NCBI GenBank assembly: GCA_963769025.1
Contig: CAVYKI010000006.1
Location: 608,001 to 672,000 of the forward strand
Length of the DNA: 64,000 bases
Source of the DNA: an uncultured Verrucomicrobiae bacterium
Lineage (GTDB): Bacteria; Verrucomicrobiota; Verrucomicrobiia; Chthoniobacterales; Chthoniobacteraceae
Direction of reading: 5' to 3'
The notes beneath the pieces were generated by a model. It made no database searches. It saw nothing but the letters and a program-made list of their open reading frames with translations, and was not told the DNA's origin. Positions 28,763 through 50,264 of this stretch are shown piece by piece; position 1 is the first letter of the stretch, and each line of letters opens with the position of its first letter. The position numbers and the translations under genes were made by a program.

Positions 28763-28796
28763 AAGGACGGAAGGCGAACCCAAAACCCAACCATTT

Positions 28797-31075: not shown

Positions 31076-31261
31076 CTACAGCGCCTCAATTTCGTCGCGG
31101 ATCTGGTCCTTCGTACGGCCGAGCTTCTTTTGCAGGCGTCCCAGCAACTCGTCGTCCTTACCTTCGGCGAACGTGAGATCGTCGTCGGTGAGGTTAGCGT
31201 ATTTCTGCTTCAGCTTGCCTTTGAGCTCGTTCCAAGAGCCTTTGAGTTGGAGTTTATTCAT
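31076..31261 (-). CDS. CsbD-family general stress protein
   Basis: [23 protein letters not shown]. Confidence 0.92.
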
Positions 31262-33384: not shown

Positions 33385-34064
33385 ACCCAAATATCAATGG
33401 CGCATCGAAGCGGCTGCTCGTGGTGGACGCCCATCCGATCGTGCGATACGGCATCCGGCACATGTTCGAGCAAGTCCCCGAGGTGACGGTCTGTGGCGAG
33501 GCCGAAAATGGACGGTCGGCGCTCGAGGCTATGCGGGCTTTGAATCCGGATCTCGTGCTGATGGAAGTCGCGATGCCAGGAATGAACGGCATCGAACTCA
33601 TAAAGCTCATGCTCTCTGAACGCCCGCTGCTGAAGATACTGATGCTCTCGAACCACGATGAGTCCCTGTATGCCCTCCGGGCCCTCCGCGCGGGGGCAAA
33701 AGGCTATCTTACCAAGGCGCAACCCCTCGAACATATCGGCGACGCCCTCCGCAGCATCATCGAAGGTGCTACCTACGTGAGCCGTGAGTTCAGTGAGAGG
33801 CTGGTGTTCAAAGCCGTGCAGGGGAGCGAGAGCGATCTGGGCACTCCGGTGGACAAACTCTCGGACCGCGAACTCGAGGTCCTCCAACTGCTCGGGTGCG
33901 GGAAAACGACGCGGGAGATCGCTGCCGAACTCCATGTGAGCGTAAAAACGATCGAGACCCATCGAGCACACATCAAGGAGAAGCTGGGCTTCAAGGATGC
34001 AAAGGAATTGGTGCGCTTCGCGACCGAATGGAGGGCCTCTGGCGAGGGTGTGAACGGCGGCTGA
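33381..34064 (+). CDS. NarL/LuxR-family response regulator with atypical receiver
   Basis: LSDRELEVL..VSVKTIETHRAHIKEKLG; receiver reads DAH and MEVAMPG. Confidence 0.92.
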   Translation: MNPNINGASKRLLVVDAHPIVRYGIRHMFEQVPEVTVCGEAENGRSALEAMRALNPDLVLMEVAMPGMNGIELIKLMLSERPLLKILMLSNHDESLYALRALRAGAKGYLTKAQPLEHIGDALRSIIEGATYVSREFSERLVFKAVQGSESDLGTPVDKLSDRELEVLQLLGCGKTTREIAAELHVSVKTIETHRAHIKEKLGFKDAKELVRFATEWRASGEGVNGG

Positions 34065-34145: not shown

Positions 34146-36197
34146 TCATCCTGCGGGATTTTCATCGCGATTCTCCGTCACCCGCCGGATTGCTGCGATG
34201 AGCAGCGGGACTTCGATGGGCTTTACCAAGTGCTCGCTGAAACCCGCCATGCGGCTGCGGCGCACGTCCTCATCCATTCCGTAGCCGCTCATCGCGATGC
34301 AGGGGATGGCGCGGGTCGCCCGGATGCGCTGTATCAGTTCACACCCGCTCCCATCGGGCAGGCCGAGATCGCTCACTACCACATCAAAGTGTGCCTGCTC
34401 GGCGATGGCGAGAGCGTCGGCGACACTGCTGGCTCCGGTGACAAGGCAGCCGGCAGCGCGCAGGAGCCGGGTGAGCGTGCGAGCGGTGTCGGCGTGATCC
34501 TCCACCAGGAGCAGCCGGATGACTCCCGGGCGGCCCGCGGCCTCGGCCAATTCAGGCGGCAGACTTGCGGCAGTGGCATTGAGACCCGGGAGTTCGATGA
34601 CAAACGTCGCGCCGTGGCCCGGGCCGTCGCTTTCGGCGCGAATCGTGCCGCCTTGCAATTCGACCAGCGCACGGGAGATGGCGAGGCCGAGGCCCATCCC
34701 GCCGAAGCGTCGGGTGACACTGCCGTCGCCCTGCTCGAAGGCCTCGAAGATGCGTGGTAACGCATCGGGCGGTATTCCGATTCCCGTGTCGCTCACGCGT
34801 ACTTCGCGGCGATCGTCGAGAAGCGCCGTGCTCACGCGGACGATGCCATCAGCGGGCGTGAACTTGACCGCGTTTTTGAGCACGTTCCAAAGCACCTGCT
34901 GGAGGCGGGCTGGGTCGGCCGCGACGAAACCGACTTCACCGGAAAATTGGGTTTCGAGGCGTACGTTTTGTTCGAGGAGCTGCTGGTGGCAGATGCCGCA
35001 GACACTGCGGATTGCGGCATTCAGATCGACGGCTTCAGTTTTCAATTCGATTTTCCCGCTGGCGATGCGGTTGAGATCCAGCAGGTCATCGATGAGCTTC
35101 GTCTCCAACTCGACGTTGCGCTTGATCATGATGATGTCTTCGCGCACGTCGGGCCGCAGGCCGGGATCGTGCTCCAGCGCACCTACGGCCATGAGAACGG
35201 GCGTAAGCGGGGTTCTCAATTCGTGGCTGAGCACGGCGAGGAAGCGGTCCTTCGCCTGGTTCGCAGTTTCCGCGAGGTTCTTGGCCGCATGTAGCGCCTC
35301 CTCGGCGCGCTTTCTCTCGGTGATATCCCCGAAATAAACCGAGAGCCCGTCCTCCGATGGATAGCAGCGGCATTCGATCCACCGCGCGATGGGATCCGGG
35401 TAGAATTCCTCGAAATGGAGCGGTTGCCGGGTCTCCACGGCCCGGTGGAATTCCGCGAAGAACTTCCTCTCTTTCGCGCCCGAAAAAACATCCCACACGC
35501 ACCCGCCGATCATGTCTTCGGGACTCACGCCGAGCAATTGCGCTCCTTGCTTGCTGAAATAGGAAAAGCGCCACTCCTTGTCCATGACTGCGAGCCCATC
35601 GGTGATGCTGCCGAGCACGGTCTGCAGTCTGAGGTGGGCCTTGGCCAACGCCTCATCCGCGAGCTTGCGCCCGGTGATGTCGCGGATGGCGGCGAGCCTG
35701 CCCACTGACTGGCCGGCGGTGTCCCGCAGCACGCTGACACTGGACTCCACATGCAAACGGCGACCATCCCGCCGGATGTGGATGCTTTCCCCCCGCCATT
35801 CGCCGTGTTCGCGCAACGCGTCGGTCGCAGCGGCCTCGTCCTCAGCGCGCAGCCAGCGGGTTTCGTGGATCCTCGCCACGTGGCGGCCGAGGACTTCGGA
35901 AGCTGTCACACCGTATTGCCGTTCGGCGGCGGCATTAAGGAAGGTCACGCGTTTGTCGTCATCCACTACGATGACGGCATCGCTGACCTGTGCGAGGATC
36001 TCGCCGCGGAACCGGTTCGATTCTGCGTCCACGCCCTGGAGCGTGAAGACCCGCGGGCCCGACTCGCCGTCGATGACGAGCGCATCCACCTCGCCGCAGC
36101 GGATGGCGCGCAAAGCCTCCTCCGCCTCTTCCAAGCGCGCGCGCAACTCCGCGTTCTCGGCGAGAAGCGATTGGTCGGGGGTGGCGTTTGCGGCCAT
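34146..36197 (-). CDS. PAS-PAS hybrid sensor histidine kinase with receiver
   Basis: SHELRTPL, NAVKFT, DTGIG, GMGLGL, SDLGLPD. Confidence 0.95.
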   Translation of the reverse strand: MAANATPDQSLLAENAELRARLEEAEEALRAIRCGEVDALVIDGESGPRVFTLQGVDAESNRFRGEILAQVSDAVIVVDDDKRVTFLNAAAERQYGVTASEVLGRHVARIHETRWLRAEDEAAATDALREHGEWRGESIHIRRDGRRLHVESSVSVLRDTAGQSVGRLAAIRDITGRKLADEALAKAHLRLQTVLGSITDGLAVMDKEWRFSYFSKQGAQLLGVSPEDMIGGCVWDVFSGAKERKFFAEFHRAVETRQPLHFEEFYPDPIARWIECRCYPSEDGLSVYFGDITERKRAEEALHAAKNLAETANQAKDRFLAVLSHELRTPLTPVLMAVGALEHDPGLRPDVREDIIMIKRNVELETKLIDDLLDLNRIASGKIELKTEAVDLNAAIRSVCGICHQQLLEQNVRLETQFSGEVGFVAADPARLQQVLWNVLKNAVKFTPADGIVRVSTALLDDRREVRVSDTGIGIPPDALPRIFEAFEQGDGSVTRRFGGMGLGLAISRALVELQGGTIRAESDGPGHGATFVIELPGLNATAASLPPELAEAAGRPGVIRLLLVEDHADTARTLTRLLRAAGCLVTGASSVADALAIAEQAHFDVVVSDLGLPDGSGCELIQRIRATRAIPCIAMSGYGMDEDVRRSRMAGFSEHLVKPIEVPLLIAAIRRVTENRDENPAG

Positions 36198-36229
36198 GGC
36201 GGTTCGGCGGATTTCGACGACGGAATTAT

Positions 36230-36592
36230 TTACTGAGGCCTGTCCTTGGCGGCCTTGCGAAGATCGAGCCCGAGGAGAATGCGTTCAGTCTGCGACATGT
36301 CTCCAATGAAGCGCCGCAGTGGAAGCGGCAGTTTTTTGATCAGGGTTGGGGCGGCGAGGATCTGTTCGCCTTTTGCCAGCGCGGGCTTTTTGGAGATGTC
36401 CACGACCTCGAGTTCGTAGCGGCCTTCCAGATATTCCTCGCAAATCTTGCGGATGTTCACGATCGCCTTTGCGGAATGTGCCGTCATGCCAGTGATGTAG
36501 AGCAGCAACACGTAGCGCGAAGTGTCCTGCGCGACTGCGGCGGCCTCAAAGTCGGCGACGGCGCCCGGATCGCTGGCGGTCCTTTTCATCAC
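36230..36592 (-). CDS. kaiB: KaiB-family protein
   Basis: [35 protein letters not shown]. Confidence 0.92.
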
Positions 36593-36921
36593 TCCCTGTC
36601 CTTCAACGGCTGAAGGTTCAGGCCAACGAGTACCCGTTCCTCATTGGACAGGTCCCCGATGATCTTTTTGATCGGTTCGGGCAGCCGGCGCACGAGGGTG
36701 GGGACGGCGAGGATTTGATCGCCCGCTGCGAGTTGGGGTGTTTTCAGGAGGTCGATGACTTCGATGCGATACTTGCCGGCAAGGTGCGTTTCGCAGATGC
36801 GCTTGAGGTTCTTGAACGCCGCGAGCGATTTCGGAGTCTGTCCTGCGACGTAGAGCCGCAGCTCGATCTGCGATGGCATGGCCGCGGCCGCTCGTTTCAT
36901 TTTGGAGGGGGTGTCGATCAT
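36589..36921 (-). CDS. kaiB: KaiB-family protein
   Basis: [35 protein letters not shown]. Confidence 0.93.
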
Positions 36922-38663
36922 GGTTTTCCGTTGGTTCGTCGTTTGCCGTCCATTGCCCCGCCGCGCAAGCGGGCCATGGCTTCGGTGTTTTTCTGCTCGG
37001 CTTCTTCCTCCACGGCCTCCCGTGCGGTTGCGAGGGAGACATCGAGCGATCCCGCCTCCACTTCGGCCTGCAACGCCGCGATCTGTGCTTCGATTGCCTT
37101 CCGCTTTCCGGCGAACTGGCGCAACATCCGTTCGTGCTCCTGCCGGCGCAGGTCTGCAGCGGCGCGCTCCCGGCCTTGCTGCACGACACGTGCGGTGCCA
37201 GTGAGCACCCGGTCCGCGCCGAGGTAGACATCCACGAGGTCGATGCCCTTGTCCGTCAGGACGAACTCCCGCACTTGATTCGAGTGGGCCATGCCGCGCG
37301 CCTTCAGGACGTAAATGGTGCGGTTGCGCTCGCCATTGGTTTCCACGTTCCGCAGCAGCAGCCAAGCATCCATGAGGGACGACACACCCACCTGCGAATC
37401 CTCAGGCGAAGCCGTCGCGCCGCCTCCGGTTGTCAGGCTGGTAAAAAGCGCGGTGATCTGCTGCTGCTTCAGAAAATCGATCAGCCGCATGAGCGTCGGC
37501 TTCACCTCCCATTCGCTGCGCTCGAGCGTGAGATTGCTGATCGGATCGACCGCGACCACGCTCGGGCGGAACGCGCGCACCGTGTCGTGCATCATGACGA
37601 GATGCTGCTCCAGCCCGTGCATCGTCGGGCGGGATGAATGAATCTGGAGAAGTCCCTTTTTCACCCACCGGGCGAGGTCGATGCCGATGGCGCTCATGTT
37701 GCGGATGATCTGCGCGCTGGACTCCTCGTAGGCAAAAAGGAGCGCCCGCTCGCCGCGCTTGCATGCGGTTTCCACGAACTTTGCGGCGATACTGCTTTTG
37801 CCGGTGCCGGGGGAACCGGAGATGAGCATGCTGCTCCCGCGGAAGATGCCCTTGCCGCCGAGCATCTCATCGAGCCGTGCGATTCCGGTGGGGATGCGCT
37901 CCGCCGGGGCTTTGTGATCGAGCTGAAGCGAAGTGATGGGCAGCACCGAGAGGCCGCGCTCACCGATGAGGAAAGGGTACTCATTCGTGCCGTGCGCGGT
38001 TCCGCGATACTTCAGCACCCGCAGGCGTCGGGTGGAAATTTGCTCCTGAAGCCGCTGGTCGAGGACGATCACACAATCGGCCACATACTCCTCCAGCCCG
38101 AATCGCGTGAGCGAAGCCTCACCCTTTTCGCAAGTAATGACTGCCGTCATGCCCCGGTCCTTCAGCCAGCGGAAGAGCCGCCGCAATTCCGCACGGAGGA
38201 TGCCGTGGTTCGGAAGTCCGGAAAAAAGCGCCTCGAGAGTGTCGAGGACCACGCGTTTTGCGCCGATGGAATCAATGGCATGCGCGAGGCGGACGAAGAG
38301 ACCTTCAAGATCGTATTCGCCGGTCTCCTCGATCTCGCTGCGCTCGACGTGAACGTGGTCGAGGACGATCTTTTTCCGGGCAACGAGCTTGTCGAGGTCG
38401 AAACCGAGCGAGCGGACATTGGCGGTCAGTTCCGCGGCGCTTTCCTCGAACATCATGAATACACCCGGCTGGCCAAACTCCGTCGCGCCGCGGATGAGGA
38501 ATTCCATCGCGAGCATCGTCTTTCCGCTCCCGGCGCTCCCGCAGACCAGCGTGGGACGGCCTTTTGGCAGTCCGCCGCGGGTGATTTCATCGAGGCCCAC
38601 GATGCCTGTCGGCGCCTTTGGAAGGGTGGGGGGCTTATGCATTGTCTGTTTCTTGCCTTTCAT
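36918..38663 (-). CDS. kaiC: double-domain KaiC-family ATPase/autokinase
   Basis: Two Walker A motifs GSAGSGKT and [18 protein letters not shown] and KARG; SS at the phosphosite position. Confidence 0.95.
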
Positions 38664-38979: not shown

Positions 38980-39405
38980 TCAGTCCGGCAGTTGAGTTGG
39001 AGCGCGACCTTCATCTCCCGGCGCCCACGTAAAGTGACAGGAGGTGCAGTAGAACTGCCGTTCGGCGAGTCCGAGGGCCGCGGCCGCCGCGGGAATGAAC
39101 GCCCCAACGATGGTGTTTCGCGAGAACTGCGGAAACTCCACCTGGGTGGAATTGCAGGAGGGACACTTGATGGCGAACTGAAGCCCCGAAGCCGCGGCGT
39201 CCATGGCGTGCAAGCGCGCCAAAGCTGCGTCCAGCTTGTCGGGAGGGACCAAGACATGCCATTGTCCGTGGGGGTGAGGATTGCAGAATCGGAGCAGTTG
39301 TTCAGCCGCATCGTTGTCTGTGATGGCGCCGAACCCTTCCTCGCAAAGCATGCGGGCGAGCTTCTCGGCAGGCGCGGAATCGTCGAAAGAGGCGATCGGA
39401 GTCAT
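38980..39405 (-). CDS. hypothetical protein with CxxC..CxxC zinc ribbon
   Basis: KCPSCNS ... YCTSCHFTW. Confidence 0.65.
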   Translation of the reverse strand: MTPIASFDDSAPAEKLARMLCEEGFGAITDNDAAEQLLRFCNPHPHGQWHVLVPPDKLDAALARLHAMDAAASGLQFAIKCPSCNSTQVEFPQFSRNTIVGAFIPAAAAALGLAERQFYCTSCHFTWAPGDEGRAPTQLPD

Positions 39406-39516
39406 ACCCCTGTTTCGCCCGAATCAGGCGGTTTGGGCGTATGCGAAGTGCGCCGTTCTGCCGGTCTTATCGGGTTCGGGGCGTCCTGATGCGCACTAGA
39501 ACGCGATACCCCGGGC

Positions 39517-40209
39517 ATGAAAACCTCCAGCCGGGACCCTGTATGCGGGATGGATGTGGACAAAGCCACCGCGGTCCGGACAACGCACGACAGGATCACC
39601 TTTTTCTTTTGCAGTGAAAAATGCCGACAGCAGTTTGAGCGTGACCCTGATGAGTTCGCAGGCGCGCCCGACGGCGAGAGAAAGCGAGGTCATGGCGAAA
39701 AGACGCGGCAGGAGGGGAGGGGCACGAAATTTTGGGACTACATCCCCCTCATAGTCGTTGTCGTTCTCACGTTGCTTTCGGCATGCGCGAAACAATACGC
39801 CTACGCTGGAGGATGGTGATGGATGGCATGGATGCACGATTTCATGGGCTTCTTCCTCGTCGTCTTTTCCATGTTCAAGTTCTTCAATATGGAAGGTTTC
39901 GCCGACGGCTTTCAGATGTATGACCTCCTCGCCAAACCCTTTCGTCCGTACGCATATTTTTACCCCTTCATGGAGGCCGCCCTCGGGCTGGGCTATCTCG
40001 CCCACTGGAATCCGACCTTTGTCTATGCGGCCACCGTCGCGGTGATGGTTGTCGGATCGCTCGGGGTCTTCAACGCGCTACGAAAAGGCCTCGATTTGGA
40101 ATGCGCGTGCATGGGGACGGTGCTGCATGTCCCGCTTTCGACCGTGGCCTTGGTGGAAGACCTCGGCATGGCGGCGATGGCTGTCGGAATGCTCATCTTC
40201 GCGCATTGA
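39517..40209 (+). pseudogene. YHS + MauE/DoxX-like membrane protein with in-frame TGA at 39817
   Basis: DPVCGM..FCSEKC (YHS); frame continues GW*WMAWMHDFMG..FQMYDLLA..CACMG. Confidence 0.75.
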
Positions 40210-40441
40210 GACGCCCCACAGCCAGGGCGAAGAACTGCAATCGCGGGCGTCGGCTTTGTGCGGAGCGCCGTATGGAAATCGGGACGTCCACCGGCGACTT
40301 TGGCGGCGATTCATCAGCGACCCACATGAGAAAACATCCCCTCCTTCCGCGCCTCGATCCTCTTGGTCTCAAAACAGGAATCGAACTCGCTGCCGGTGGG
40401 TTGGTGGCTTTGGTCCTGATGCGGTGGCTCGGGATGTAAAT

Positions 40442-40636
40442 ATGAAGCGCATCGAATTCACCATCGCCGGCGAGGACGGCAAGTCCCTCCATGAGCCGGG
40501 ATTCGTGGAAGATTGCACCGAATTGCCCGTGGCAGTGATGCGGGCCATGGAAGATTTTCTGGAAGCCCACAATGGACACCCACACTTGCCAATTACAATC
40601 TTGGTGCGGCGCAGCATCGGAACAGCGACCTGTTGA
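40442..40636 (+). CDS. small hypothetical protein
   Basis: MKRIEFTIAGEDG ORF inside a gene-dense island. Confidence 0.35.
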   Translation: MKRIEFTIAGEDGKSLHEPGFVEDCTELPVAVMRAMEDFLEAHNGHPHLPITILVRRSIGTATC

Positions 40637-40658
40637 AACCCGGAGGGTGCCGCCGTCT

Positions 40659-40961
40659 GTGAAGGAATTCGACATCTACGTGCCGTGCCGGAAAAACGAC
40701 GGAACGCTCGTTGAACTGGCCGATATCGAGTCCATCAAAAGCACTCTCATCAAGACGTTCGGCGGCTTCACCCATCTGCAACAGCGTAACAAGGGTGCTT
40801 GGAAAGTGGGAGGGACTACATTCCACGATGATGTGACCATTCTGCGCGTTTTGGACGACGGTTCCGCCGCTTTTGATATGCGGAAATTCAAGGAAACTCT
40901 CGAACGCACGCTGAAGCAGGACAGCGTTTTGATCGTTGAGCGCGAGGTCAGATGTGTTTGA
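40659..40961 (+). CDS. hypothetical protein
   Basis: GTG start VKEFDIYVP..NDG..FGGFT..LKQDSVLI. Confidence 0.6.
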   Translation: MKEFDIYVPCRKNDGTLVELADIESIKSTLIKTFGGFTHLQQRNKGAWKVGGTTFHDDVTILRVLDDGSAAFDMRKFKETLERTLKQDSVLIVEREVRCV

Positions 40962-40997
40962 GGCGGCTTTTGCCAACCTACGATGCGATGGTCCTAC

Positions 40998-41492
40998 ATG
41001 CGTGAACAGAATCACCCCAACGGGCCAGTGCGACTGAACCGCATCGAGGAAGATCCGAAGAGTGCGTTGCTCGCAAAACTGATGGATTCGGCTTTCGTCG
41101 TTCCAGGGACCAAAATTCGATTCGGGGTGGACGCCCTTATCGGTCTGTTTCCAGGCGTCGGCGACTCGCTGGGTGCCCTTATTTCCACATTCATCATCGC
41201 CCAAGCCTCCCGAATGGGCGTGCCGCGGGTAATTCTGGCGAGGATGGCCATGCACATTCTCATTAACACCGTCGTGGGAGCGGTTCCCATCGTGGGTGAC
41301 ATGTTCTCAATGTTTTATCGTTCCAACCTGAAGAATTACGAGCTGCTACGCCGTTACGCGGGTCAGCGGCGAATTCCGACGGCCCGCGATTGGCTTTTCG
41401 TGCTGGGATTCGCCCTGCTAATGCTCGTGCTCGTGTCGGCGTTCGTCGCGGGTGCTGTCATAATCGCGAAAAAACTGATCGGAAGCTCGTGA
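40998..41492 (+). CDS. DUF4112-family membrane protein
   Basis: MDSAFVVPGTKIRFGVDALIGLFPGVGD, GAVPIVGD. Confidence 0.88.
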   Translation: MREQNHPNGPVRLNRIEEDPKSALLAKLMDSAFVVPGTKIRFGVDALIGLFPGVGDSLGALISTFIIAQASRMGVPRVILARMAMHILINTVVGAVPIVGDMFSMFYRSNLKNYELLRRYAGQRRIPTARDWLFVLGFALLMLVLVSAFVAGAVIIAKKLIGSS

Positions 41493-41556
41493 AGTGGGGG
41501 GCGTAAAATGAGCAAAGCTTCCCGCCGGTCGGGGTGAGAATGATGCGCAAAAATCC

Positions 41557-41892
41557 ATGCACGCAGCCGATGTTGTAGAGCGATTCATTTTGAAGTTTAT
41601 CCCCCCGAAAATGGAACCCGAACAAGCGTGCGAACAACTGGCCGGTGAATTGGAAGATGCCGCCCGTTGGTTGTCAGCAGGTGGGTTGAGCGAAAGGGAA
41701 TTCTGCAACCTTTTATCCATTGTTGGAAAACGGAAGTTGAATGGGTCGGGCTTAAAGCTTGCAGGCTTCCGCGGCGGAGACGGGGGTGTACACTTCACGT
41801 TGAGGACTGCCGCCGATGATCTTTGCATCATCATGGATATGGACCCATGCACTGGCAGGCTGGTCACGCGATCACCGTGCTGGGGAGCGTAA
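41557..41892 (+). CDS. hypothetical protein
   Basis: 111-aa ORF, no recognised motif. Confidence 0.4.
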   Translation: MHAADVVERFILKFIPPKMEPEQACEQLAGELEDAARWLSAGGLSEREFCNLLSIVGKRKLNGSGLKLAGFRGGDGGVHFTLRTAADDLCIIMDMDPCTGRLVTRSPCWGA

Positions 41893-42134
41893 ACTAAATT
41901 TCACAACGAATCAGTCTACGACCCCTCGGACTTGATCGAACACGGCGTTCTTCCCACTCAGTCGGTGCTTTTCGGATAACCGCGGGTTCCCGTAAAGGCC
42001 GCAATCGAGTAAACCAGAAGGGAGGGCTTACTCTCGCGTGTGCGGAACAGCATGAATAGCCACTTAATCATAATGCGCTTGTGTTCAGATCCTATTCGTT
42101 TCGGAAGGAGCGGACGGTTGCTCAGATTTCCATC

Positions 42135-42569
42135 TCAGGATTTCGACTTCATCGCCTGAATTGAGATTCGTGACGGGACCGAGGCAGCTAGCCGCGTCAA
42201 ACGTTCAGAAAAGGCGATGTGGCACCTCGCCGAACAAAAGGAATTGAAAGGCCCCCGCTCGAAACGCCGGTATACGACCTCGTCACTTGTGGGCGAAAGC
42301 GGTTTGCCGCAATTGTCACACGTGGTTTGGCTGTCGAGATGCGCGCCTCTCGCAATGGCGGCGGTGCCGTGGCCCCCAACGCATTGTTGGTGTGGATTGA
42401 GCAAGCGATGCGTTTCATCCGGTGCAGGTTCCCTCTCGGGGTGCACAAGTTTTGCGCTCCTAGTGAAAAGCCGCCAAGCGGCCAAACCGAGCGCTGCTCC
42501 AACCCCGGCAATCGTCCAGAACGGAGATCGGGCTGAAATGGAGTGTGAATGGCCGAAGCGGTTTTTCAT
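42135..42569 (-). CDS. hypothetical protein with TM and CxxC...FCS..C (TRASH-like) motif
   Basis: TCDNCGKP ... FCSARC. Confidence 0.45.
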   Translation of the reverse strand: MKNRFGHSHSISARSPFWTIAGVGAALGLAAWRLFTRSAKLVHPEREPAPDETHRLLNPHQQCVGGHGTAAIARGAHLDSQTTCDNCGKPLSPTSDEVVYRRFERGPFNSFCSARCHIAFSERLTRLAASVPSRISIQAMKSKS

Positions 42570-42821
42570 CTCAACCGGCTATCGGTCTTCAATTCACGGA
42601 TGCGGGTAACGATTTCCTTCTTTTTGCAGAACGCCACCGTGGCGAACGGGGATGGCGGGGTACGACCAGAAATCGGCGGGGGTTTCGGAATCTGGCGCTT
42701 TGGCGGCGGGCAGAACCTTTGAAGAACACACGCCCAAGTTTTGAGCGACGTGCGAACCACCCCCGAGAAAGCGATCCCCCACTCATCCTGAGGATCGCAA
42801 ACCTAAAATCAAAACCATGAA

Positions 42822-44335
42822 CAAAAAAGGCGGTCGCAAGGGTGGGCGCTCGGGAAGCAAGCGGAAGACCAAAGCTTGAACCCGCGATCACTCAGGCAGA
42901 GCGCTCCGACTTCGGGGCTGCAAAATCGGCAACTGCCAGCGCTTATGAGTGGCCGCAGTTTGGGCGGAGGTTGGATGAGGAAAGTTTCATCGGACGAATA
43001 CATCCAAAATCGGGACATTCTGCGTTCGGAGGTTGCTATGAAAAAGTCAACGCAATCCACCAATCCCGAACCCTCTCACGACGAAATTTCCGCACGCGCG
43101 CAGCAGATTTACGAAGAACAGGGCTGCCCATGCGGGAAAGCTGAGGAGCACTGGCGCGAAGCCGAGTGCCAATTGCGGGAGGCGAAGGCCAGTGACGCAG
43201 AGATGGGTGTTGTAGGTGCCCCGGCGCCGACAAAACCCGTGGCGGGCGCTTAACAGACCGGCCAGTTCGAAAACTTCTGCCAGCAACTCTCCGAGCAGAA
43301 GCCCGGAGTCTGCTTCTGGTCCCGCCAAAGCTGCTCAGCCAACACAGGCCGCGGCGCGGTGCGCCTCGGAATCTGTTGAAATGAGCCAACGCCAATTCTT
43401 CCGCCTATTTGGCCGCGAGCTGCGAATTCGTTGTGGATGAAATCACTTCCATCGATATTTCGGGACGCCTTCGCCTCGTGGATGGCGCACAAGGGTCCCA
43501 AAATGGGCGCGGCTCTGGCGTATTACACGGCGTTCTCGCTGGCACCTCTGCTCGTGCTTCTTGCGGGCATTTTAGGATTGGTGATTGATAATGATACGGC
43601 ACGGACAGCGCTTGTGGGTCAGATTCACGACCTCATGGGCGACGAGGGCGGTGCAATGGTCGAAGCGATCCTCCAACGCTCAGCACCGCACGAAAAGGGC
43701 GTATTGGCGACAATCATTGGCTCAGTGGTCTTGCTGTTAGGGGCGTCCGGCGTATTTGTTGAACTGCACGACTCGCTGAACACCATCTGGGAAACCCCGC
43801 CGCGCTCCCGGCCATGGGTTGCATTCATCTGCGAGCGGCTGCTGTCGTTCGCGATGGTGTTCGCCCTTGGCTTCCTCGTGCTGGTGTCGCTCGTCGCGTC
43901 GGCGATCCTCGCAGCGGTAGGTTCCTACGTGAAAGGCTGGGCACCTGGATTCGAGGTGCTCTTGGAAGCCGCCAACTCGCTGGTGTCGTTCGTGGTGGTC
44001 ACGTTGCTGTTCGGGGGACTGTTTCGGTTCCTGCCGGATGTGAAGGTCGCATGGCGCAATGTCTGGGCGGGAGCGGTCATCACGGCGGCGCTCTTCATTC
44101 TCGGAAAATTCCTCATTGGGTTCTACATCGGACGAAGCAGTTTCGCATCGGCGTACGGTGCCGCAGGATCCCTTGTGATCGTCCTGGTGTGGGTTTTCTA
44201 TTCAGCGCAGATTTTCTTTTTCGGCGCGGAATTCACCCGGGCATTCGCACGCACGAACGGAGGCGTTCGAACGGCTCGGCATTCTGACCGCACGACATCC
44301 CTCGCTGCGATGCCTGCAGCACCGGAGGGCAACTT
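42822..44335 (+). repeat. copy 2 of the ~1514-bp direct duplication
   Basis: Matches 31867-33380; ends exactly at the IS left end. Confidence 0.95.
43038..43253 (+). CDS. DUF2934-like small protein (duplicate)
   Basis: Same protein as 32083-32298. Confidence 0.8.
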   Translation: MKKSTQSTNPEPSHDEISARAQQIYEEQGCPCGKAEEHWREAECQLREAKASDAEMGVVGAPAPTKPVAGA

Positions 44336-44387
44336 GAGACCTCTGCGAAAAGCGAGTTTGCGCATGATAGGCAGGCATGAAAGCTAA
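43437..44387 (+). CDS. YihY/BrkB-family protein (duplicate; C-terminus extended into the IS)
   Basis: Same as copy 1 except one M->L change and the IS-derived tail RPLRKASLRMIGRHES. Confidence 0.88.
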   Translation: MKSLPSIFRDAFASWMAHKGPKMGAALAYYTAFSLAPLLVLLAGILGLVIDNDTARTALVGQIHDLMGDEGGAMVEAILQRSAPHEKGVLATIIGSVVLLLGASGVFVELHDSLNTIWETPPRSRPWVAFICERLLSFAMVFALGFLVLVSLVASAILAAVGSYVKGWAPGFEVLLEAANSLVSFVVVTLLFGGLFRFLPDVKVAWRNVWAGAVITAALFILGKFLIGFYIGRSSFASAYGAAGSLVIVLVWVFYSAQIFFFGAEFTRAFARTNGGVRTARHSDRTTSLAAMPAAPEGNLRPLRKASLRMIGRHES

Positions 44388-45528
44388 ACGGCGGAAATTT
44401 GCGGGCGGGGCTCGGCGCAGACGGAGTGGGAACAGCCGGACGGGTGGTGAAAAGCCAAGGTCATCGTCCCGGTGGGGGCGCTCCGGGGTGTGCGGCGGGT
44501 GGTTTTCATGCGGTGCACAGGGTCACGAGACGCTTGAGGTTCCAGGCCACGCTCTTGAGCTGGAGTTCGAGGGTGCCTTTGCGCAGGCCGGTGTAGCGCA
44601 TCCGCCGCCAGCCGAGTACGCGCTTCCAGTGGCCGAAGATTTTCTCGATGCCGGCGCGCGTGGCAGCCAGCCAGCCGTTGACCTCCTGCTGCTCGTCGGT
44701 GAGCGGGCGGTTGCGGCGCGCGGGCTCCATCAGCCCGCTGTGGATGCCTCGGGCGGCCAGCCATGCCTCGTGCTCGGCGCTGTAGTAGGCTTTGTCGGCG
44801 ATGGCCATCTCGGTGTCCGCCGGGCACACGTCCTTGAATTTTCGGCTGTCATGCACATTAGCTGCCGTCAGTTCCGCGGTGCGGATGAGCGTGTGCTCCT
44901 CGTCGGCGGCGACGTGTGCCTTGAACCCGTAATAGGCCCGGCCTCCCTTGGTCGCGTAGCCGGCCTCGGGGTCGCCCTGCGTGCCGTCGGCGCGCTCGGC
45001 ATGGGTGGGCTTGCGCCGCGCACTCTCGACGATGGTCGCATCCACGAGCGTGACGCTTTTGACCATCAGCCCGCGCGCTTCGAGTTGGGCATTCACCAGT
45101 CCGAGCAGCCGCGTGTGCAGCCCCCTCGCCACCAGCCGTGCGCGATACCGAACAAGCGCCGTCTCGTCCGGCACGCGATCCGCCAGGCCCAGCCCGCAGA
45201 ACTCCCGGAAGCTGCGCCGGTCGGCCACCTGCGCCTCGCACTCCGGGTCGCTCAAGTCATAGAAGTGCTGCAGCAGCGTCATCTTGAACATCACCAGCGG
45301 GTCGTGCGGGTCGCGCCCGCGCGTGGCCGTGTATGCCTCACGCAGCGCTGCCTCGATCGGCGTGAAGTCCACCACACTCTCCAGCTTGCCGAGGAATCTC
45401 GCCGTGCGGTTGCCCCGGTTCTCACGGTTGGCCATCTCATCCACGAAGTTCATCTGACGTTCGCTTTTGCTCATGCGTTCTTCGATCCCTCTCCCTCACA
45501 TGCCTTGGGGGATTTTCGCAGAGGTCTC
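44336..45528 (-). mobile_element. IS5-family insertion sequence (IS1106-like ends)
   Basis: Perfect 16-bp terminal inverted repeats GAGACCTCTGCGAAAA (44336-44351 and 45513-45528) around one transposase gene. Confidence 0.93.
44506..45474 (-). CDS. IS5-family DDE transposase
   Basis: LSDP..E...DRRSFR.FCGL..VPDET, VDAT, GFKAH, ADKAY, RAGIEKIFG..KR. Confidence 0.95.
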   Translation of the reverse strand: MSKSERQMNFVDEMANRENRGNRTARFLGKLESVVDFTPIEAALREAYTATRGRDPHDPLVMFKMTLLQHFYDLSDPECEAQVADRRSFREFCGLGLADRVPDETALVRYRARLVARGLHTRLLGLVNAQLEARGLMVKSVTLVDATIVESARRKPTHAERADGTQGDPEAGYATKGGRAYYGFKAHVAADEEHTLIRTAELTAANVHDSRKFKDVCPADTEMAIADKAYYSAEHEAWLAARGIHSGLMEPARRNRPLTDEQQEVNGWLAATRAGIEKIFGHWKRVLGWRRMRYTGLRKGTLELQLKSVAWNLKRLVTLCTA

Positions 45529-45764
45529 AGAATGTTTGCAAATATAGGGTTTTGCGCGGCATGACGCAGGAGGAGCTCGCGGCGAAGGCGGAAATGGACC
45601 GGAGCTACCTCGCGCGGATCGAGTCCGGCAATGCGAAGGCGTCGGTGGACCTCATCGAGCGCCTCGCGATGGGGCTGGAGGTCGCCCCGGAGAAATTGCT
45701 TCACGGCTATGCCCGGAGCGCCGGGGCCTTGCGGTCGCGGAATGGGAGCCATCAGCCGGCGTGA
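45529..45764 (+). pseudogene. XRE-family HTH regulator, 5' end probably cut by the IS
   Basis: Frame reads (Q)NVCKYRVLRGMTQEELAAKAEMDRSYLARIESG..SVDLIERLAMGLEV from the IS end onward. Confidence 0.75.
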
Positions 45765-45859
45765 TCCCCGGGCCATGCGTTTCATAGTGTCAGCCAATGG
45801 GAACGGGACGGGCGGGAACGGGGGGATTCCTGCGCAGGACACGCTGCTCCCCGGTCTCA

Positions 45860-46392
45860 TTAGGCAATCATTCCTGAGGGATGGGAGGGTCCGGGTCGCG
45901 GCCGGACAATCGTTCCCGGCAGACAACTCGCTCCGGGAGGCGGGCAGACAATCGTTTTCAAGGGACAACCCGCTCCGGCATCCCGAAACACAATCGTTTT
46001 CGGGGGACGACCGGCTCCGGCGGGTGAAAACACAATCGTTCCTGAGAGTCACCCGGCTCCGGTCTCTCAGGAATGATTGTGTTTTGGCACCCGCCGCTCT
46101 CAGTCCCGTCAAAACGCAATCAGTCCTGAGAGTCCCCACCCTGCCGGGTGAGAAAAGACAATCGTTATTGAGAGTCCCGAGCCGGTTGTCTGCCAATTTT
46201 GATTGTCGGGCGAGGCTCCGGAGCGAGGTGTCTGCCAATCCGGATTGTTTCCTGAGGTCCCGGAGCGGGGTGCCCCCCGAAAACGATTGTGTCCTGACGT
46301 TCCCGGGTCTCCTGCCGGTCAAAAATGATTGTTTTGCGGCGTTCCCAAGCGGGTCGCCGGTCGGGACGGATTGGTTTCCCGCCTCCCGGAGC
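45860..46392. repeat. 42-bp-period array of 13 degenerate units with orientation-switching CAATC/GATTG core
   Basis: Cores at 45865, 45907, 45949, 45991, 46033, 46075, 46117, 46159, 46201, 46243, 46285, 46327 and 46369. Confidence 0.92.
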
Positions 46393-46526
46393 CTTCCGTC
46401 CCCCGGGAAGCTTTGCGGATCGGGAGGGTCCAGTCTCAAGACGGCCAGGACCGAAAGCGGATGCGGCGAACGGGACTGTGGCATCGGCGCGCAGGCGCGT
46501 GGCGCAGTGAAGCGTGGCGGAGCCTT

Positions 46527-46659
46527 TGGACTGCGGCGGCTTGACGCCGCTTTCCGTTTCGAGGCTTGCCGAGAAGCCGGTGGTGCGGGGCTTCCCGATG
46601 GCCTCCCACGCTCGCCAAGGCTCGCCATACCCAAAGCGGCGTCAAGCCGCCGCACTCCA
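46527..46659. repeat. REP/MITE-like palindromic element
   Basis: tggactgcggcggcttgacgccgcttt ... aaagcggcgtcaagccgccgcactcca. Confidence 0.85.
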
Positions 46660-46702
46660 TGGGCTCCGCCCATCCTGCCGCGTGCCCGTTTTCCACTCCG
46701 TC

Positions 46703-47731
46703 ATGAGCCGCTGGGATGATCCGTCCACGACGTGGGACTCCTTTTTCTGGGATGCGCCGGATGCCCCGGTGCCGCCCCCGACCAAACACAGGAAAACAAA
46801 CCGACGAACCATGAGCAGCAACCCCACCCCGGACAACAACGACATCCTCCGCGCCCTGGCCGATCGCATCGCGGACGGGTGCAATACCCATGAAACGGCC
46901 ATCGGCATCAAGCAGAACACGGAGGCGGCCATCCGCGCGGCGCTCGCGGTCCTCGATGCGGCGCAGTACCAGCTCGGCCAGAAGCGGGCCGCGGTGGATG
47001 CCGGCTACGGAGCCATGCAGGCGGCGGATGTGGCCGGACAGACGACAGTCACGAACTGCAAGCTGCGCCTCCGGCAGAAGCTCGGCGAACGCTGGAGCGC
47101 GGCATGGGAGCCGACCGGCTTCCCGCACCAGTCCACCGCCGTGCCCGGCACGCAGGACGAGCGGTTCACGCTGCTCAAGAAGCTGAACACCTACTTCACC
47201 AATGTGCCTGCGAACGAAAGCGCCGACATGGGAGCGACCGCCGCGCTGTGCCTGGCGGCGTGGGACGCCCTCTCGAATGCCCGGCAGTCGGTGGCGGACG
47301 CCGAGGCCGCTGAGACCGGCGCCGCGAGCGCCCATGCCGCCGCCGCGGAAGCCCTTCGGAAGCGGGTGCGCGGGCTCATCAATGAGCTGGGCGGCCTGAT
47401 CGAGGACGACGACCCGCGCTACGAGGCGTTCGGCCTGAACATCCCGGCAAACCCGAGCGCGCCGGAGCCGGTGTCCGGCGTCACGCTGGCGCCGCTGGGC
47501 AACGGGCGCTTCTCGGCGAGCTGGCCCTACGCGACGCGGGCGGTGCGGTTCCGCGTGGAGACATTAGTCATGGGCACGGATACGGAATGGCAGAACAAGG
47601 GGAGCTTCCGGGACCTGGAGGCGATCCTGAAGAACTTCGCCGCGGGGCAGACCGTGAAGGTGCGGATCGTCGCCGGAAACGACGGCGGCGACGCCGCGCC
47701 GAGCCCGGAGGGGAGCGTCGTCGTCGCGTAA
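46703..47731 (+). CDS. hypothetical protein: WD-rich leader, Ala-rich helical region, C-terminal FN3-like domain (alternative start 46811)
   Basis: MSRWDDPSTTWDSFFWDAP; C-terminus PEPVSGVTL..SASW..FRV..VRIVAGNDGGDAAPS. Confidence 0.75.
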   Translation: MSRWDDPSTTWDSFFWDAPDAPVPPPTKHRKTNRRTMSSNPTPDNNDILRALADRIADGCNTHETAIGIKQNTEAAIRAALAVLDAAQYQLGQKRAAVDAGYGAMQAADVAGQTTVTNCKLRLRQKLGERWSAAWEPTGFPHQSTAVPGTQDERFTLLKKLNTYFTNVPANESADMGATAALCLAAWDALSNARQSVADAEAAETGAASAHAAAAEALRKRVRGLINELGGLIEDDDPRYEAFGLNIPANPSAPEPVSGVTLAPLGNGRFSASWPYATRAVRFRVETLVMGTDTEWQNKGSFRDLEAILKNFAAGQTVKVRIVAGNDGGDAAPSPEGSVVVA

Positions 47732-47756
47732 CGACGGGGGCGGGGCGGGGCGGGGT

Positions 47757-47913
47757 GAGAGTTGAGGGTTGAGGGTTGAGAGATGAGAGGCTGACTCGGC
47801 CGGCTAACAGTCCCCTTCCCTTTCAATAGCCTGCGTCCATCTCCGCATTGCATCAGTTCCCAGCTTCCGCCTCCTAACTTCCGCCTCTCCACTCTTAACC
47901 CTCAACTCTCAAC
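47757..47913. repeat. inverted heptamer repeats (GTTGAGR / YCTCAAC)
   Basis: gagagttgagggttgagggttgagag ... ctcttaaccctcaactctcaac. Confidence 0.7.
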
Positions 47914-47919
47914 TGAAGA

Positions 47920-48519
47920 ATGTTCGACCCTTCCCTCCCCGCCGATGCCACCAAGGCCACCGCCGCAGAGATGCGCGCGCAACTCACCGGGCTGAAGGCG
48001 GAAATCGACGCCATCCCGGGCATCACCTCGGCGGTGGTGGATTCGGTGACGACGACCGGTCCCGGCGAGCCGGCGACGGTGAGCGTGTCCGTGATCGGGA
48101 CGGTGTTGCATATTAGCCTTGCGCTGCCGCGCGGGGCGGATGGCGTCCCCGGCATGCAGGGCGAACAGGGGTTGCAAGGTCCGCCATTTGCCAGTGCGGT
48201 CATCGACAGCGTCGGCACGCTGAATCCCGGGGAGAATGCGACGGTGTCGGTGTCCTTCGACGGGAGCACGGTGCATTTCAGCTTTGGCATCCCGCGCGGG
48301 GCGCAGGGGGAGCAGGGCATCCAGGGCGAGTCGGGCCAGGTGACGACCGAGGCGCTCAACGGGGCGATTTCCTCTGCTCTCGCGGGCACCTCGAACAACA
48401 CGAACGGGGTCGCCGCCATGGACACGCCTTTCACCAACGACCCGCCGACCCTGGCCGACCTGGAGCTGATGCGGGCGAACTACAACCTGCTGGTCGCGGC
48501 GCTGCGCCGGCAGGTGTAG
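47920..48519 (+). CDS. collagen-like / fibre-like repeat protein
   Basis: Two ~35-aa beta-rich repeats (AVVDSV..PGEPATVSVS..HISLALPRG and AVIDSV..PGENATVSVS..HFSFGIPRG), each followed by G-X-Y triplets. Confidence 0.75.
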   Translation: MFDPSLPADATKATAAEMRAQLTGLKAEIDAIPGITSAVVDSVTTTGPGEPATVSVSVIGTVLHISLALPRGADGVPGMQGEQGLQGPPFASAVIDSVGTLNPGENATVSVSFDGSTVHFSFGIPRGAQGEQGIQGESGQVTTEALNGAISSALAGTSNNTNGVAAMDTPFTNDPPTLADLELMRANYNLLVAALRRQV

Positions 48520-48870
48520 CCCCTGGACTGCGGCAGCTCGCTGCCGCTTTCGGCTTCGAGGCTTGCCGAGAAGGGGGTGGGGCGTGTGACCGGATGCCAC
48601 CCCGCGCTCGCCAAGGCTCGCCGGCCACAAAGCGGAGGCGAGCCTCCGCAGTCCAGGGCTACGCGACACCTTTGAAGTTCGGGTCGTCGATTCCCTTCAG
48701 CTCGCTGCCGCTTTCGGCTTCGAGGCTTGCCGAGAAGGGGGTGGAGCGTGACCTTCGGCACGCTTCGCAGGGCAAGTCTTGCAAACGGAAACCCGGCCCG
48801 GACACCGCACCACGCTCGCCAAGGCTCGCCGGCCACAAAGCGGAGGCGAGCCTCCGCAGTCCAGGGCTAC
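48516..48870. repeat. two tandem REP/MITE-like elements separated by a duplicated gene end
   Basis: gtagcccctggactgcgg ... ccgcagtccagggctac; internal blocks shared with 46527-46659. Confidence 0.8.
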
Positions 48871-50264
48871 GCGACGCCTTTGAACTTCGGGTCGTCGATG
48901 CCCTTCAGCTCGCCGGTGCTGTCGGCGAAGCGGTCCAGCGGGACGCCGGCGCGCAGCAGCATCGAGTGCCATAGGTTCGCGAGCGGCGTTTTCTTTTCGT
49001 GGATGACGTGGCGGCCCGTGGCGATGGTTCCGCCGCCGCGGCCGGCGAGGACGATGGGAAGATTCTTCGGGCTGTGCGCGTTGCCGTCCCGGATTCCCCC
49101 GCCGAGCACGATCATGCAGTGGTCGAGCAAAGTGCCGGAACCTTCGCGGATGCTCCGGAGCTTTTCGACGAAGTAGGCGTACTGCTCGACGTGCCACTGG
49201 TTGATCTGCTGGTAGTGCGCCAGCTTGTCGGGCTTGTTTTCGTGGTGCGAAGTCTCGTGGTGGCCGCCGAAGTTCGCCCCGAGGAAGGCGAAGCTGCGGC
49301 TGCTCACGGCGTTGCCAAACATGAACGTGGAGATGCGCGTCGTGTCGGTCCAGAAGGCGAGCGCCATGAGGTCGAGCATGAGCCGCGTGTGCTCGGTGTG
49401 GTTGCCCGCGCGCTCGCTGAGGCGCGCGGGATCGGAATAGGCGTCGATGCGCCGGCCGAGATCATCGACCGCCGCGCGCGCCGCGGGATCTTCGTCCGCG
49501 TGCTCACGCTGCCTTTTCGCATCCCACTCGATGCGGCGTTCGACGGCACGGACGCTCTCCAGGTATTCGTCGAGCTTCGCGCGGTCGTTCGAGCCGAGCT
49601 TTTGCTGGAGGCGCTTCGCATCGCCGGCGACGAGGTCGAGCACGCTGCGGTCGCGGGTCGCCGCGAGGTCGGCGGCTGCGCGGCCGGTGGCCGCCTGCGG
49701 ACGGAAGATGCGGTCGAAGGCGAGCTTCGGGTTGATTTCCTTCGCGAGCGGCGTGGTCGGCTGGCTCCACGAGATGTGCGCGCCGTAGAGCTGCGTGTAG
49801 CCGACGTTCGTATCGACGCCGGTCGCGGGCGGCTCGATGCCGAGTTCCAGCGACGGCAGCCGGGTGAGGATGCCCACGCGCTTCGCGGCGACCTGATCCA
49901 TCGAGATGCCGTTGCTGTTCAGCTCGTCGCCGGTCGTGTGCGTGATCGTCGTGCTGGTGAGGTAGCCGCCGGTCTTCACGTAATGGCCGTCGCCGGTGTC
50001 GCTCGCGGCGTTCCACAGTTCGCTGAGCACGAGGATGTCGTCTTTCACCCCCGCAAGCGGGGCGAGCGTGGGCGAAAGCTCGAAGTCCGATCCCGTGCCC
50101 TTCGGCGTCCACATGCCGGGATGGACTCCATTGGCCATGTAAAGCTGCGCCATCCGCACGGGGAAGCGGGTGCTGGCGGCGGGGAGCATGGCCTCGAGCA
50201 CGGGAAGCGCGAGCGTGGCCCCGAGGCCCTTGAGCAATGTGCGGCGGCTGATGGCTGGGTTCAT
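48867..50264 (-). CDS. DUF1552 (PVC) protein
   Basis: ISRRTLLKGLG..LALPVLEAM, SMDQVAA, SLELG, EGSGTLLD, AHSPKNLP. Confidence 0.88.
   Translation of the reverse strand: MNPAISRRTLLKGLGATLALPVLEAMLPAASTRFPVRMAQLYMANGVHPGMWTPKGTGSDFELSPTLAPLAGVKDDILVLSELWNAASDTGDGHYVKTGGYLTSTTITHTTGDELNSNGISMDQVAAKRVGILTRLPSLELGIEPPATGVDTNVGYTQLYGAHISWSQPTTPLAKEINPKLAFDRIFRPQAATGRAAADLAATRDRSVLDLVAGDAKRLQQKLGSNDRAKLDEYLESVRAVERRIEWDAKRQREHADEDPAARAAVDDLGRRIDAYSDPARLSERAGNHTEHTRLMLDLMALAFWTDTTRISTFMFGNAVSSRSFAFLGANFGGHHETSHHENKPDKLAHYQQINQWHVEQYAYFVEKLRSIREGSGTLLDHCMIVLGGGIRDGNAHSPKNLPIVLAGRGGGTIATGRHVIHEKKTPLANLWHSMLLRAGVPLDRFADSTGELKGIDDPKFKGVA

Follow-up and report, generated by a model that had tools for sequence, protein, structure and literature searches.

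We analyzed a 64,000-nucleotide stretch of DNA from an uncultured Verrucomicrobiae bacterium (GenBank assembly GCA_963769025.1, contig CAVYKI010000006.1, positions 608,001 to 672,000 of the forward strand), referred to below as the window. Within it, a tandem array with a 42-bp period lies upstream of a gene for a 342-amino-acid protein ending in an FN3 domain, which is followed by a collagen-like, tail-fibre-like gene. G+C content is 63% in the window and 61% in the array itself, and the gene content is chromosomal (KaiC/KaiB, histidine kinases, 2-oxoglutarate dehydrogenase, DUF1552). The coordinates of the array, its partner genes and the neighboring features are collected in Table 1. Comparison with related loci showed that the array is a diverged and partly inverted member of a conserved, non-coding family of 42-bp tandem arrays, and that the family stands directly 5′ of a cassette of two genes, the helical/FN3 gene and the collagen-like, tail-fibre-like gene, in Verrucomicrobiota.

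Table 1. Features at and around the 42-bp array, in window coordinates
Feature	Coordinates	Strand	Description
Whole array	45865..46410	no strand	13 units of 42 bp, no indel
Units 1-5, forward	45865..46074	+	Core (A)CAATC(GTT); GCTCCGG 24 nt past core start
Unit 6, inverted	46038..46079	-	Core GATTG at 46075
Units 7-8, forward	46117..46200	+	CAATC cores on grid
Units 9-13, inverted	46164..46373	-	GATTG cores at 46201, 46243, 46285, 46327, 46369; CCGGAG 17 nt past grid point
Gene for 342-aa protein, constant partner of the array	46703..47731	+	Disordered N-terminus, long helical bundle, C-terminal FN3
Spacer inverted repeat	47756..47914	no strand	Inverted repeats I2 and I5; between FN3 and collagen-like genes
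Collagen-like, tail-fibre-like gene, 199 aa	47920..48519	+	Conserved N-terminus, variable remainder
IS5-family insertion sequence	44335..45529	-	DDE transposase 44506-45474; context, outside module
XRE-type helix-turn-helix gene, 5′-truncated	45552..45764	+	First in-frame ATG at 45561
G-rich tract	45799..45825	+	Five runs of three or more G on the sense strand, just upstream of array
Palindromic MITE/REP-like element, 155 bp	46516..46670	no strand	38-nt arms 92% complementary; dispersed, outside array

The forward cores of the array (CAATC, F) begin at positions 45865, 45907, 45949, 45991, 46033, 46117 and 46159, and together with the six GATTG cores (R) listed in Table 1 they occupy a single exact 42-bp grid in the order FFFFFRFFRRRRR, that is, FFFFF R FF RRRRR. 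Over the whole window CAATC occurs 50 times and GATTG 51 times. In 200 windows simulated with a first-order Markov model, the longest phased run was 1 (149 windows) or 2 (51 windows), compared with the 13 observed, so that simulation and direct reading agree with a preliminary description of this DNA, which had reported 13 cores at an exact 42-bp spacing without an indel (45865-46369). The autocorrelation proposed there as a check also made the period stand out: identity was 0.589 at lag 42, against a mean of 0.261 (sd 0.057) across lags 1 to 129. Spacing at a multiple of 42 was found for 101 of 124 direct 7-mer pairs, and 109 of 147 inverted 7-mer pairs shared a single phase.

The second motif, which had been described as flipping along with the cores, was recovered at every position reported, with CTCCGG at 45931, 45973, 46015 and 46057 (grid offset 24), CCGGAG at 46218, 46260 and 46386 (grid offset 17), and one additional CTCCGG at 46216. 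When the 13 units were stacked in one orientation, the core, G15 and G29 were invariant (13/13), and G11, C17 and C24 were retained in 12 of 13 units. Tandem Repeats Finder called only 2.8 copies here because the units of the window array are merely 59% alike.

To place the array, we fetched 80 loci encoding relatives of the 46703-47731 protein (L001 to L080). An alignment of 32 members was used to scan GTDB species genomes, giving 155 pattern matches, of which 88 were confirmed and 80 kept as loci. Nearly all come from metagenome-assembled genomes (MAGs) of Verrucomicrobiota, and the window's own genome is not among them (best identity 75%). Sixty-nine loci had the 300 bp or more of upstream sequence that made them testable, while the remaining 11 end at a contig edge. 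All repeat counts rest on metagenome assemblies, which may collapse tandem repeats.

With a fixed detector, at least three units of 42-bp periodicity were found in 54 of the 69 upstream blocks and in 1 of 346 control blocks, the controls being other 1.8-kb blocks from the same loci. The one control block that scored, from L009, holds a 7-bp array between the FN3 and collagen-like genes. Among periods of 15 to 69, the best was 42 in 63/69 upstream blocks, and a test that made no use of the core placed the strongest lag within 1.5 kb upstream at 42 or 84 bp in 64/69 loci. The assignment of the array to the adjacent gene was thereby supported, and the suggestion survived its own test of refutation, namely that homologous loci should lack any periodic array. 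Most related arrays consist of 5 to 12 near-identical direct units, with lag-42 or lag-84 identity of up to 0.99, and some have drifted as the window copy has, with the sites alone retained. The earlier statement that this is not a slippage-type variable-number tandem repeat thus stands for the window copy but not for many of its relatives, which are near-perfect tandem repeats. The window's own core was found on the same 42-bp grid upstream of the gene in 6 of the 80 loci. What persists down to about 30% protein identity is the period, a layout of two palindromes and the position, the unit sequence having been replaced.

The first palindrome of the unit, which we call Pal1, has arms of 4 to 12 bp around an A/T-rich centre of 1 to 3 nt. 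Its arm sequence is specific to the locus, and examples such as CAGCCGAGAtTCTCGGCTG, TTCGGAtTCCGAA, TGGAAAActcTTTTCCA and GCCCAatcTGGGC are unrelated to one another, yet the period is still 42. The second, Pal2, is a GGAGnCTCC-like palindrome found in the units of many loci, with arms of 4 to 6 bp and a 1-nt centre. The distance from the centre of Pal1 to that of Pal2 was 21 bp in 12 of the 17 loci in which both could be called. The window array is built on this plan, with aACAATCGTt as Pal1 and, at a distance of about 21 bp, (C)CGGCTCCGG as a degenerate Pal2. Across 31 arrays, the Pal1 arm positions comprised 1335 Watson-Crick pairs, 63 G·T pairs on the sense strand, 65 A·C pairs, which read as G·T on the antisense strand, with a further 92 in other combinations. 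Selection for an RNA from one strand would be expected to enrich G·U there, and the near equality of 63 and 65 therefore gives no strand-specific RNA signal. Unit number differs between close relatives with the same Pal1, as in L010 (4.0) and L014 (9.8), counted with the same detector in assemblies that may collapse repeats. In L072 (7686-7917) a 21-bp inverted repeat flanks the array on both sides.

The reversed cores of the window mark whole inverted units. With the core columns excluded, all six R units were nearer to the F consensus as the reverse complement (0.49-0.65) than directly (0.30-0.46), and all seven F units behaved in the opposite way, matching better directly. This indicates that entire units, not the cores alone, are inverted. 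Unit 6, for example, was 0.65 identical to the consensus as the reverse complement and 0.43 directly. The junctions between orientations form the strongest local palindromes (inverted repeats I7, I6 and I15), and at the F5/R6 junction the inverted repeat has 22-nt arms (46027-46048 and 46064-46085) that are 95% complementary.

An orthologous array was found in L003, whose protein is 73% identical to the 342-aa protein of the window. The two arrays align without a gap along their full length, with 74% identity overall and 95% in the core. The order in L003 is FFFFFFF R FF RRRRR, two F units more than in the window. The R FF RRRRR tail is common to both and was therefore inherited. The mirror order around unit 7 pointed out in the preliminary description is formally present in the window but is not kept in L003, and because seven F units precede the tail there and five here, the symmetry is incidental and gives no support to a designed feature. 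Flips in phase also occur elsewhere, since L015 and L022 alternate CCGAAgatTTCGG and CCGAAatcTTCGG on a single grid. Each core is itself an inverted repeat, so that exchange between two cores inverts the intervening segment and keeps the 42-bp register. Two nested inversions, of units 6-13 first and then of units 7-8, would be enough to convert an all-forward array into FFFFF R FF RRRRR. Flips would be tolerated because symmetric sites work either way round. We infer that the mirror pattern has no meaning of its own and is consistent with in-phase inversions between palindromic cores.

The array's constant partner belongs to a large family. Among the candidates scored, the 342-aa protein had 314 relatives at E ≤ 0.001, 57-75% identical and many of them on very short contigs, and a profile search of 1.84 billion representatives (50% identity) returned 930 relatives at E ≤ 1e-10. 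The AlphaFold2 model had a mean pLDDT (predicted local distance difference test) of 82.6. Fold searches of the PDB and BFVD, and a PDB sequence profile, matched the FN3 domain and nothing else of the protein, an Atlas search returned only unnamed Verrucomicrobiota clusters, and no match was found in Pfam, PHROG, PADLOC or NCBIfam. The collagen-like protein gave weak PHROG matches to tail-fibre and minor-tail proteins (1.8e-5 to 1e-3), and a tblastn match to its gene was found downstream of the FN3 gene in 43 of the 80 loci. At the DNA level, only the first ~50-190 nt of this gene are conserved (L003, L004, L005, L007), and a constant start with a variable remainder is a pattern typical of receptor-binding tail fibres. 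In the spacer between the two genes of the window, a G-rich arm with GTTGAGG-type heptads is followed by a C-rich mirror that stops just before the next start codon. The same spacer of L009 (1470-1679) holds the 7-bp arrays mentioned above, GAACTGA in 20 copies and GCCTACC in 8.3 copies.

We interpret the array as a protein-binding platform of double-stranded DNA that lies within the control region of the FN3/tail-fibre-like cassette, a reading in which our confidence and our doubt are about evenly balanced. On this view the array would work in its double-stranded form. With one site per 21 bp, or about two turns of the helix, all sites would share one face, where dimeric DNA-binding proteins could assemble next to one another and cooperatively form a nucleoprotein array that would control transcription of the downstream cassette. 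The preliminary description had left a choice between a helically phased protein platform and a structured or processed nucleic acid. The 21-bp spacing in 12/17 loci, the fixed 42 bp despite arms of 4 to 12 bp and the lack of a wobble bias between strands lean toward the former. Geometry, not sequence, is conserved across loci, and drifted arrays hold their sites constant. A period fixed while the arms vary, a second palindrome at the half period and tolerated inversions together favor a double-stranded target of two-fold symmetry. The sites are symmetric in this way, lie whole helical turns apart and show no strand dependence.

Several observations weigh against this interpretation. As a candidate binder we considered the XRE-type regulator. 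Its gene precedes the array, in the same orientation, in 21 of 53 loci with scanned upstream open reading frames (ORFs; 117 in total), all 21 being among L001-L044. The distant relatives L045-L080 have arrays, yet there were no Pfam helix-turn-helix matches among their scanned upstream ORFs. Moreover, L004 and L010/L014 share one Pal1 while their recognition helices differ, and the pairs L002/L007 and L003/L035 have similar XRE proteins yet different Pal1 sequences. One Pal1 was found with three different XRE types. The site does not co-vary with the recognition helix, and XRE was rejected as the main binder of Pal1 in an operator array. In the partner protein the FN3 domain alone received structural matches, and no array-binding protein was identified. 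In L021, L059, L062, L064 and L069 the array ends only ~10-40 nt from the start codon; transcription must then start inside or upstream of it, and part of the array may be RNA. A hint of polarity comes from the Pal1 centres, which favor one strand (t 11, a 3; atc 3, gat 0), although these are counts of consensus units from loci that are not independent. In the window, the MITE/REP-like element (miniature inverted-repeat transposable element/repetitive extragenic palindrome), which has terminator-like hairpins, parts the array from the gene, a poor fit to a strictly promoter-proximal operator, and a sigma-70 scan of 45400-48900 gave no promoter. A sigma-54-like spacing seen by eye upstream of some arrays was discarded, as it does not fit the consensus spacing.

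The second possibility in order of merit, which we nevertheless consider unlikely, is that transcription yields an RNA copy of the array, which would be either the 5′ leader of the FN3 gene or a non-coding RNA in its own right. The transcript would be a string of hairpins with one Pal1 stem per 42 nt, which might bind a protein, set the stability or translation of the mRNA, or yield unit-length RNAs. The strand bias of the Pal1 centres speaks for it, as do arrays that extend to the ribosome-binding site in several relatives, and Pal1 stems are free to vary between loci yet remain paired at 1335 of 1555 positions. G-rich tracts upstream of the array and C-rich mirrors before the start codon could close a large stem (L017, L019 and L007; inverted repeat I9 in the window). 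The XRE genes of L015 and L022 end in a terminator-like hairpin (GGCTCC-TATA-GGAGCC) followed by a run of T, and the array there would need its own transcription start. Against this, mismatches compatible with G·U are no more frequent in sense than in antisense, and centres of 1-3 nt in Pal1, like 4-bp arms around a single nucleotide in Pal2, make poor hairpins. When the 37-nt spacers were folded singly they did no better than shuffled sequences (z from -1.61 to +1.02), the exception being the F5/R6 junction (z -3.98), and a hairpin-plus-linker model was dropped for this reason. The inverted blocks, kept in both the window and L003, would cause a transcript to pair with itself in one long, imperfect duplex (about -300 kcal/mol), with every loop sequence reversed. 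No Rfam family was matched, and an RNA offers no reason for a constant 42 nt while stem length changes.

The surroundings of the module bear on two further alternatives. What the window has in common with its close relatives is the array, the FN3 gene and the beginning of the collagen-like gene; the flanks differ, even from L003. One MAG holds at least three copies of the module (L003, L007 and L035). We compared ORFs of 300 aa or more upstream of the module with PADLOC models at E ≤ 1e-20, three long ORFs being omitted for size. In L001-L047, 27 of 46 upstream ORFs matched, in 18 of 26 loci. By locus, the matches were to Cas9 in 7 (with Cas1 in 4 of them), Cas12b in 2, restriction-modification in 6, LmuB in 1 and PglX/DrmD in 1, and L029 has a type II Cas1 upstream of the module. 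Only 5 of 91 downstream ORFs matched (91 of 103 candidates were submitted), and three of these matched generic sigma-54-activator ATPases. In the distant group, 1 of 28 upstream ORFs matched. In the closer group the module thus occupies a single, constant edge of defence islands. The defence genes lie upstream of the XRE gene in L002, L003, L005, L007, L019, L025, L026, L027, L029, L031 and others, and represent class 2 CRISPR-Cas (clustered regularly interspaced short palindromic repeats with Cas9 or Cas12b), restriction-modification, Lamassu and BREX/DISARM-like systems. In the window, that side of the module is taken up by an insertion sequence (IS) and a BrkB gene, and no defence gene was found among the window ORFs scanned.

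These surroundings would suit an element driven by its structure or by recombination. Its cruciform-prone palindromes might be used for recombination or integration, might form a boundary or hot spot at which neighboring defence cargo is exchanged, or might provide a small mobile cassette, consisting of the array plus the two genes, with its origin or packaging site. We judge this quite improbable. The module is shared while its flanks are not, several copies are found per genome (L003, L007 and L035, in one MAG), and differing defence systems occur on the upstream side only (27/46 against 5/91 ORFs downstream). A/T-centred palindromes without sequence conservation would fit recognition by shape, units are homogenised within a locus and vary in number between relatives with one Pal1 (L010 and L014), and inversions have taken place. 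However, neither the protein clusters nor Pfam revealed a recombinase, Rep, terminase or partition gene conserved in the module, and an integrase lies beside the array in L067 only. The differences in repeat number may reflect collapse in metagenome assemblies, and recombination alone does not explain Pal2 and the exact 21/42-bp phasing.

A further proposal, which we regard as a long shot, casts the array as the sensor of a so far undescribed defence-island module. Its many sites would receive a DNA-binding protein from outside the module, for example a phage transcription factor, with Pal1 tuned differently in each of the several copies of a genome. Binding would switch on the tail-fibre-like cassette, or the protein would be soaked up beside it, and the cassette would interfere with the invader. 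The module would then mark the edge of islands that swap Cas9, Cas12b, restriction-modification, Lamassu and BREX-like cargo.

There is only a slim chance, in our estimation, that the array is a functionless satellite that arose once beside the gene and was kept by concerted evolution and hitch-hiking. Many arrays are near-identical in the manner typical of unequal exchange, and the window copy has drifted to 59% identity between units. Against this, period, layout and position persist to ~30% protein identity even though the unit sequence has been replaced, the cores are fixed in drifted arrays (13/13 in the window, 95% between the window and L003), and such arrays are nearly absent elsewhere in the same loci (1/346 blocks).

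We give almost no credence to the remaining alternative, that the array encodes a protein of 14-residue repeats from ORF 45631-46719 (+) or 45471-46673 (-), and we rejected a coding tandem repeat on third-position G+C (GC3), shifting frames, the lack of third-position relaxation and frame counts. Long open frames do span the array on both strands; ORF 45631-46719 ends 17 nt into the FN3 gene, and in the six relatives examined an ORF starting at an upstream CCATG crosses the array and ends 3-16 nt into that gene. However, the array-crossing ORFs have a GC3 of 0.66-0.68, compared with 0.86-0.89 in neighboring genes of the window, and neither matches Pfam. One and the same DNA palindrome is read in different frames (LSRDSRLA in L004, RQPRFSAG in L014). 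Between the window and L003, 142 of 182 third positions are identical, against 130/182 first and 130/182 second positions. Across the non-repetitive gap, 57 sense and 49 antisense frames were open where shuffled sequences gave an expectation of 52.9, and the 134 of 189 frames open across arrays are about what a stop-free 14-codon unit would give.

Two familiar kinds of repeat were also rejected as identities. The array resembles a CRISPR in its regular period, its palindromic constant part and, in drifted copies, a variable part of fixed length, and Cas9 or Cas12b genes adjoin the 42-bp arrays in nine related loci, with the type II Cas1 in a tenth. Its period, however, is 42 and not ~66; the stretches between cores are diverged copies of one unit, not unique spacers, and most relatives have no such stretches. 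No cas gene was present among the window ORFs scanned. Further support for the earlier view that this is not a CRISPR came from L031, which has a true 66-bp-period CRISPR array (251 to ~1700) with an unrelated 36-nt repeat, beside a fused cas1-cas2 and cas9. It lies 5.8 kb from the 42-bp array, at the opposite end of the cas operon.

REPs are short extragenic palindromes that cluster in both orientations, are dispersed at high copy and share a family sequence (compare PMC3733652). The 42-bp array is likewise made of extragenic palindromes clustered in both orientations. It was rejected as a dispersed REP or bacterial interspersed mosaic element (BIME) since arrays are held by one gene family (1/346 controls) and their sequence is specific to the locus. 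The true dispersed palindromic element here is the neighbor at 46516-46670, not the array. The extended core ACAATCGTT, with up to one mismatch, occurs 14 times in the window, 8 of them inside the array, against an expectation of 10.3. No IS200-like transposase of the REP-associated (RAYT) type was seen in the 64-kb window, where no dedicated test for one was made. Rfam 15 gave no array match of note at a region-wide level of E ≤ 10, the best value within the array being E 0.43 and far below gathering, and at the gathering score the whole window yielded a single match, a tRNA at 18428-18500. A blastn comparison of the array with plasmid and phage collections found no match.

Among phased arrays of binding sites, replication iterons have a period of ~20-22 bp and stand beside a rep gene and an AT-rich unwinding element. 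They resemble the 42-bp array as phased tandem binding sites, sometimes in two orientations. The array itself is 61% G+C, and no rep or primase family was found among the conserved clusters or the Pfam matches of scanned neighbors. The omega/parS heptads are contiguous 7-bp units bound by a ribbon-helix-helix protein. The omega/parS sites of pSM19035 are short operator repeats in direct and inverted orientation (compare PMC9499535); they share with the present array both orientations on one grid and a tolerance of orientation changes. The array differs in having 42-bp units with two palindromes, and no ribbon-helix-helix protein was found.

The nearest described architecture is the sopC centromere of plasmid F, which consists of 12 direct 43-bp repeats, each with a 16-bp inverted repeat bound by SopB (PMC3177203). 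The two share a unit of nearly equal length (42 and 43 bp), one palindromic site per unit, some ten tandem copies, a place next to the genes served and a presumed role as a platform for a dimeric DNA-binding protein. The 42-bp array differs in being chromosomal, in its second palindrome half a period off, in a core that varies by locus and in its inverted blocks, and its partner genes encode the FN3 and the tail-fibre-like proteins. Neither a ParA nor a ParB domain was found in the window neighbors or in the upstream ORFs scanned in the relatives.

Literature searches found no description of the element, some candidates having been judged unrelated on their titles alone, and a large gene family (930 representatives) carries a strictly phased two-palindrome array for which those searches offered no account. 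Since the geometry is kept while the sequence turns over, the natural variants, including the drifted and inverted copy of the window, mark the positions that matter. Class 2 CRISPR-Cas or restriction systems are immediate neighbors of the module in the closer relatives, without exception on the same side, and identifying the array binder could bring to light a level of regulation or sensing in the defence islands of a phylum that has received little study. The array also explains why metagenome contigs frequently break at the FN3 gene.

Upstream of the array in the window, the IS5-family transposase matched Pfam DDE_Tnp_1 (6.7e-26) and also DUF772, and the element is bounded by 17-bp terminal inverted repeats (44335-44351 and 45513-45529) that are 100% complementary. 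Its insertion removes the 5′ end, including the first helix, of the XRE gene, and its other end overlaps the 3′ end of the BrkB ORF (43431-44387). The remaining XRE protein matched HTH_3 (1.6e-11) over profile positions 8-55 starting from residue 2, with the IS end at 45529 just upstream. Between the XRE stop codon and the array, a CCATG(A/C) motif lies at 45773-45777; it is found ~40-140 nt upstream of relatives' arrays, and a loose form of the pattern is present in 37 of 55 loci.

The G-rich tract that precedes the array forms inverted repeat I9 with 46382-46402 (21 nt, 71% complementarity). Quadruplex-prone G-rich tracts also precede the arrays in L003, L005, L007, L035, L059, L060 and L064, often made up of GGAGACT-like words that resemble Pal2 half-sites, and C-rich mirrors were seen 3′ of the array in L007, L017 and L019. 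More copies of the MITE-like element follow the collagen-like gene, at 48521-48658 and ~48700-48866, with arms of 30-38 nt across the copies, and a terminator-like site of the copy next to the array lies at 46533-46550. Sequence similar to this element is found between array and gene in L003 and L007.

Elsewhere in the window, a KaiC and KaiB gene pair (34146-38663) adjoins a PAS histidine kinase/response-regulator hybrid and a LuxR-type response regulator. Two stretches, 26000-34000 and 39000-44000, are lower in G+C (0.55-0.60 against ~0.64), and few ORFs there show the usual third-position bias of the genome; the first stretch includes a second BrkB paralogue (32476-33384).

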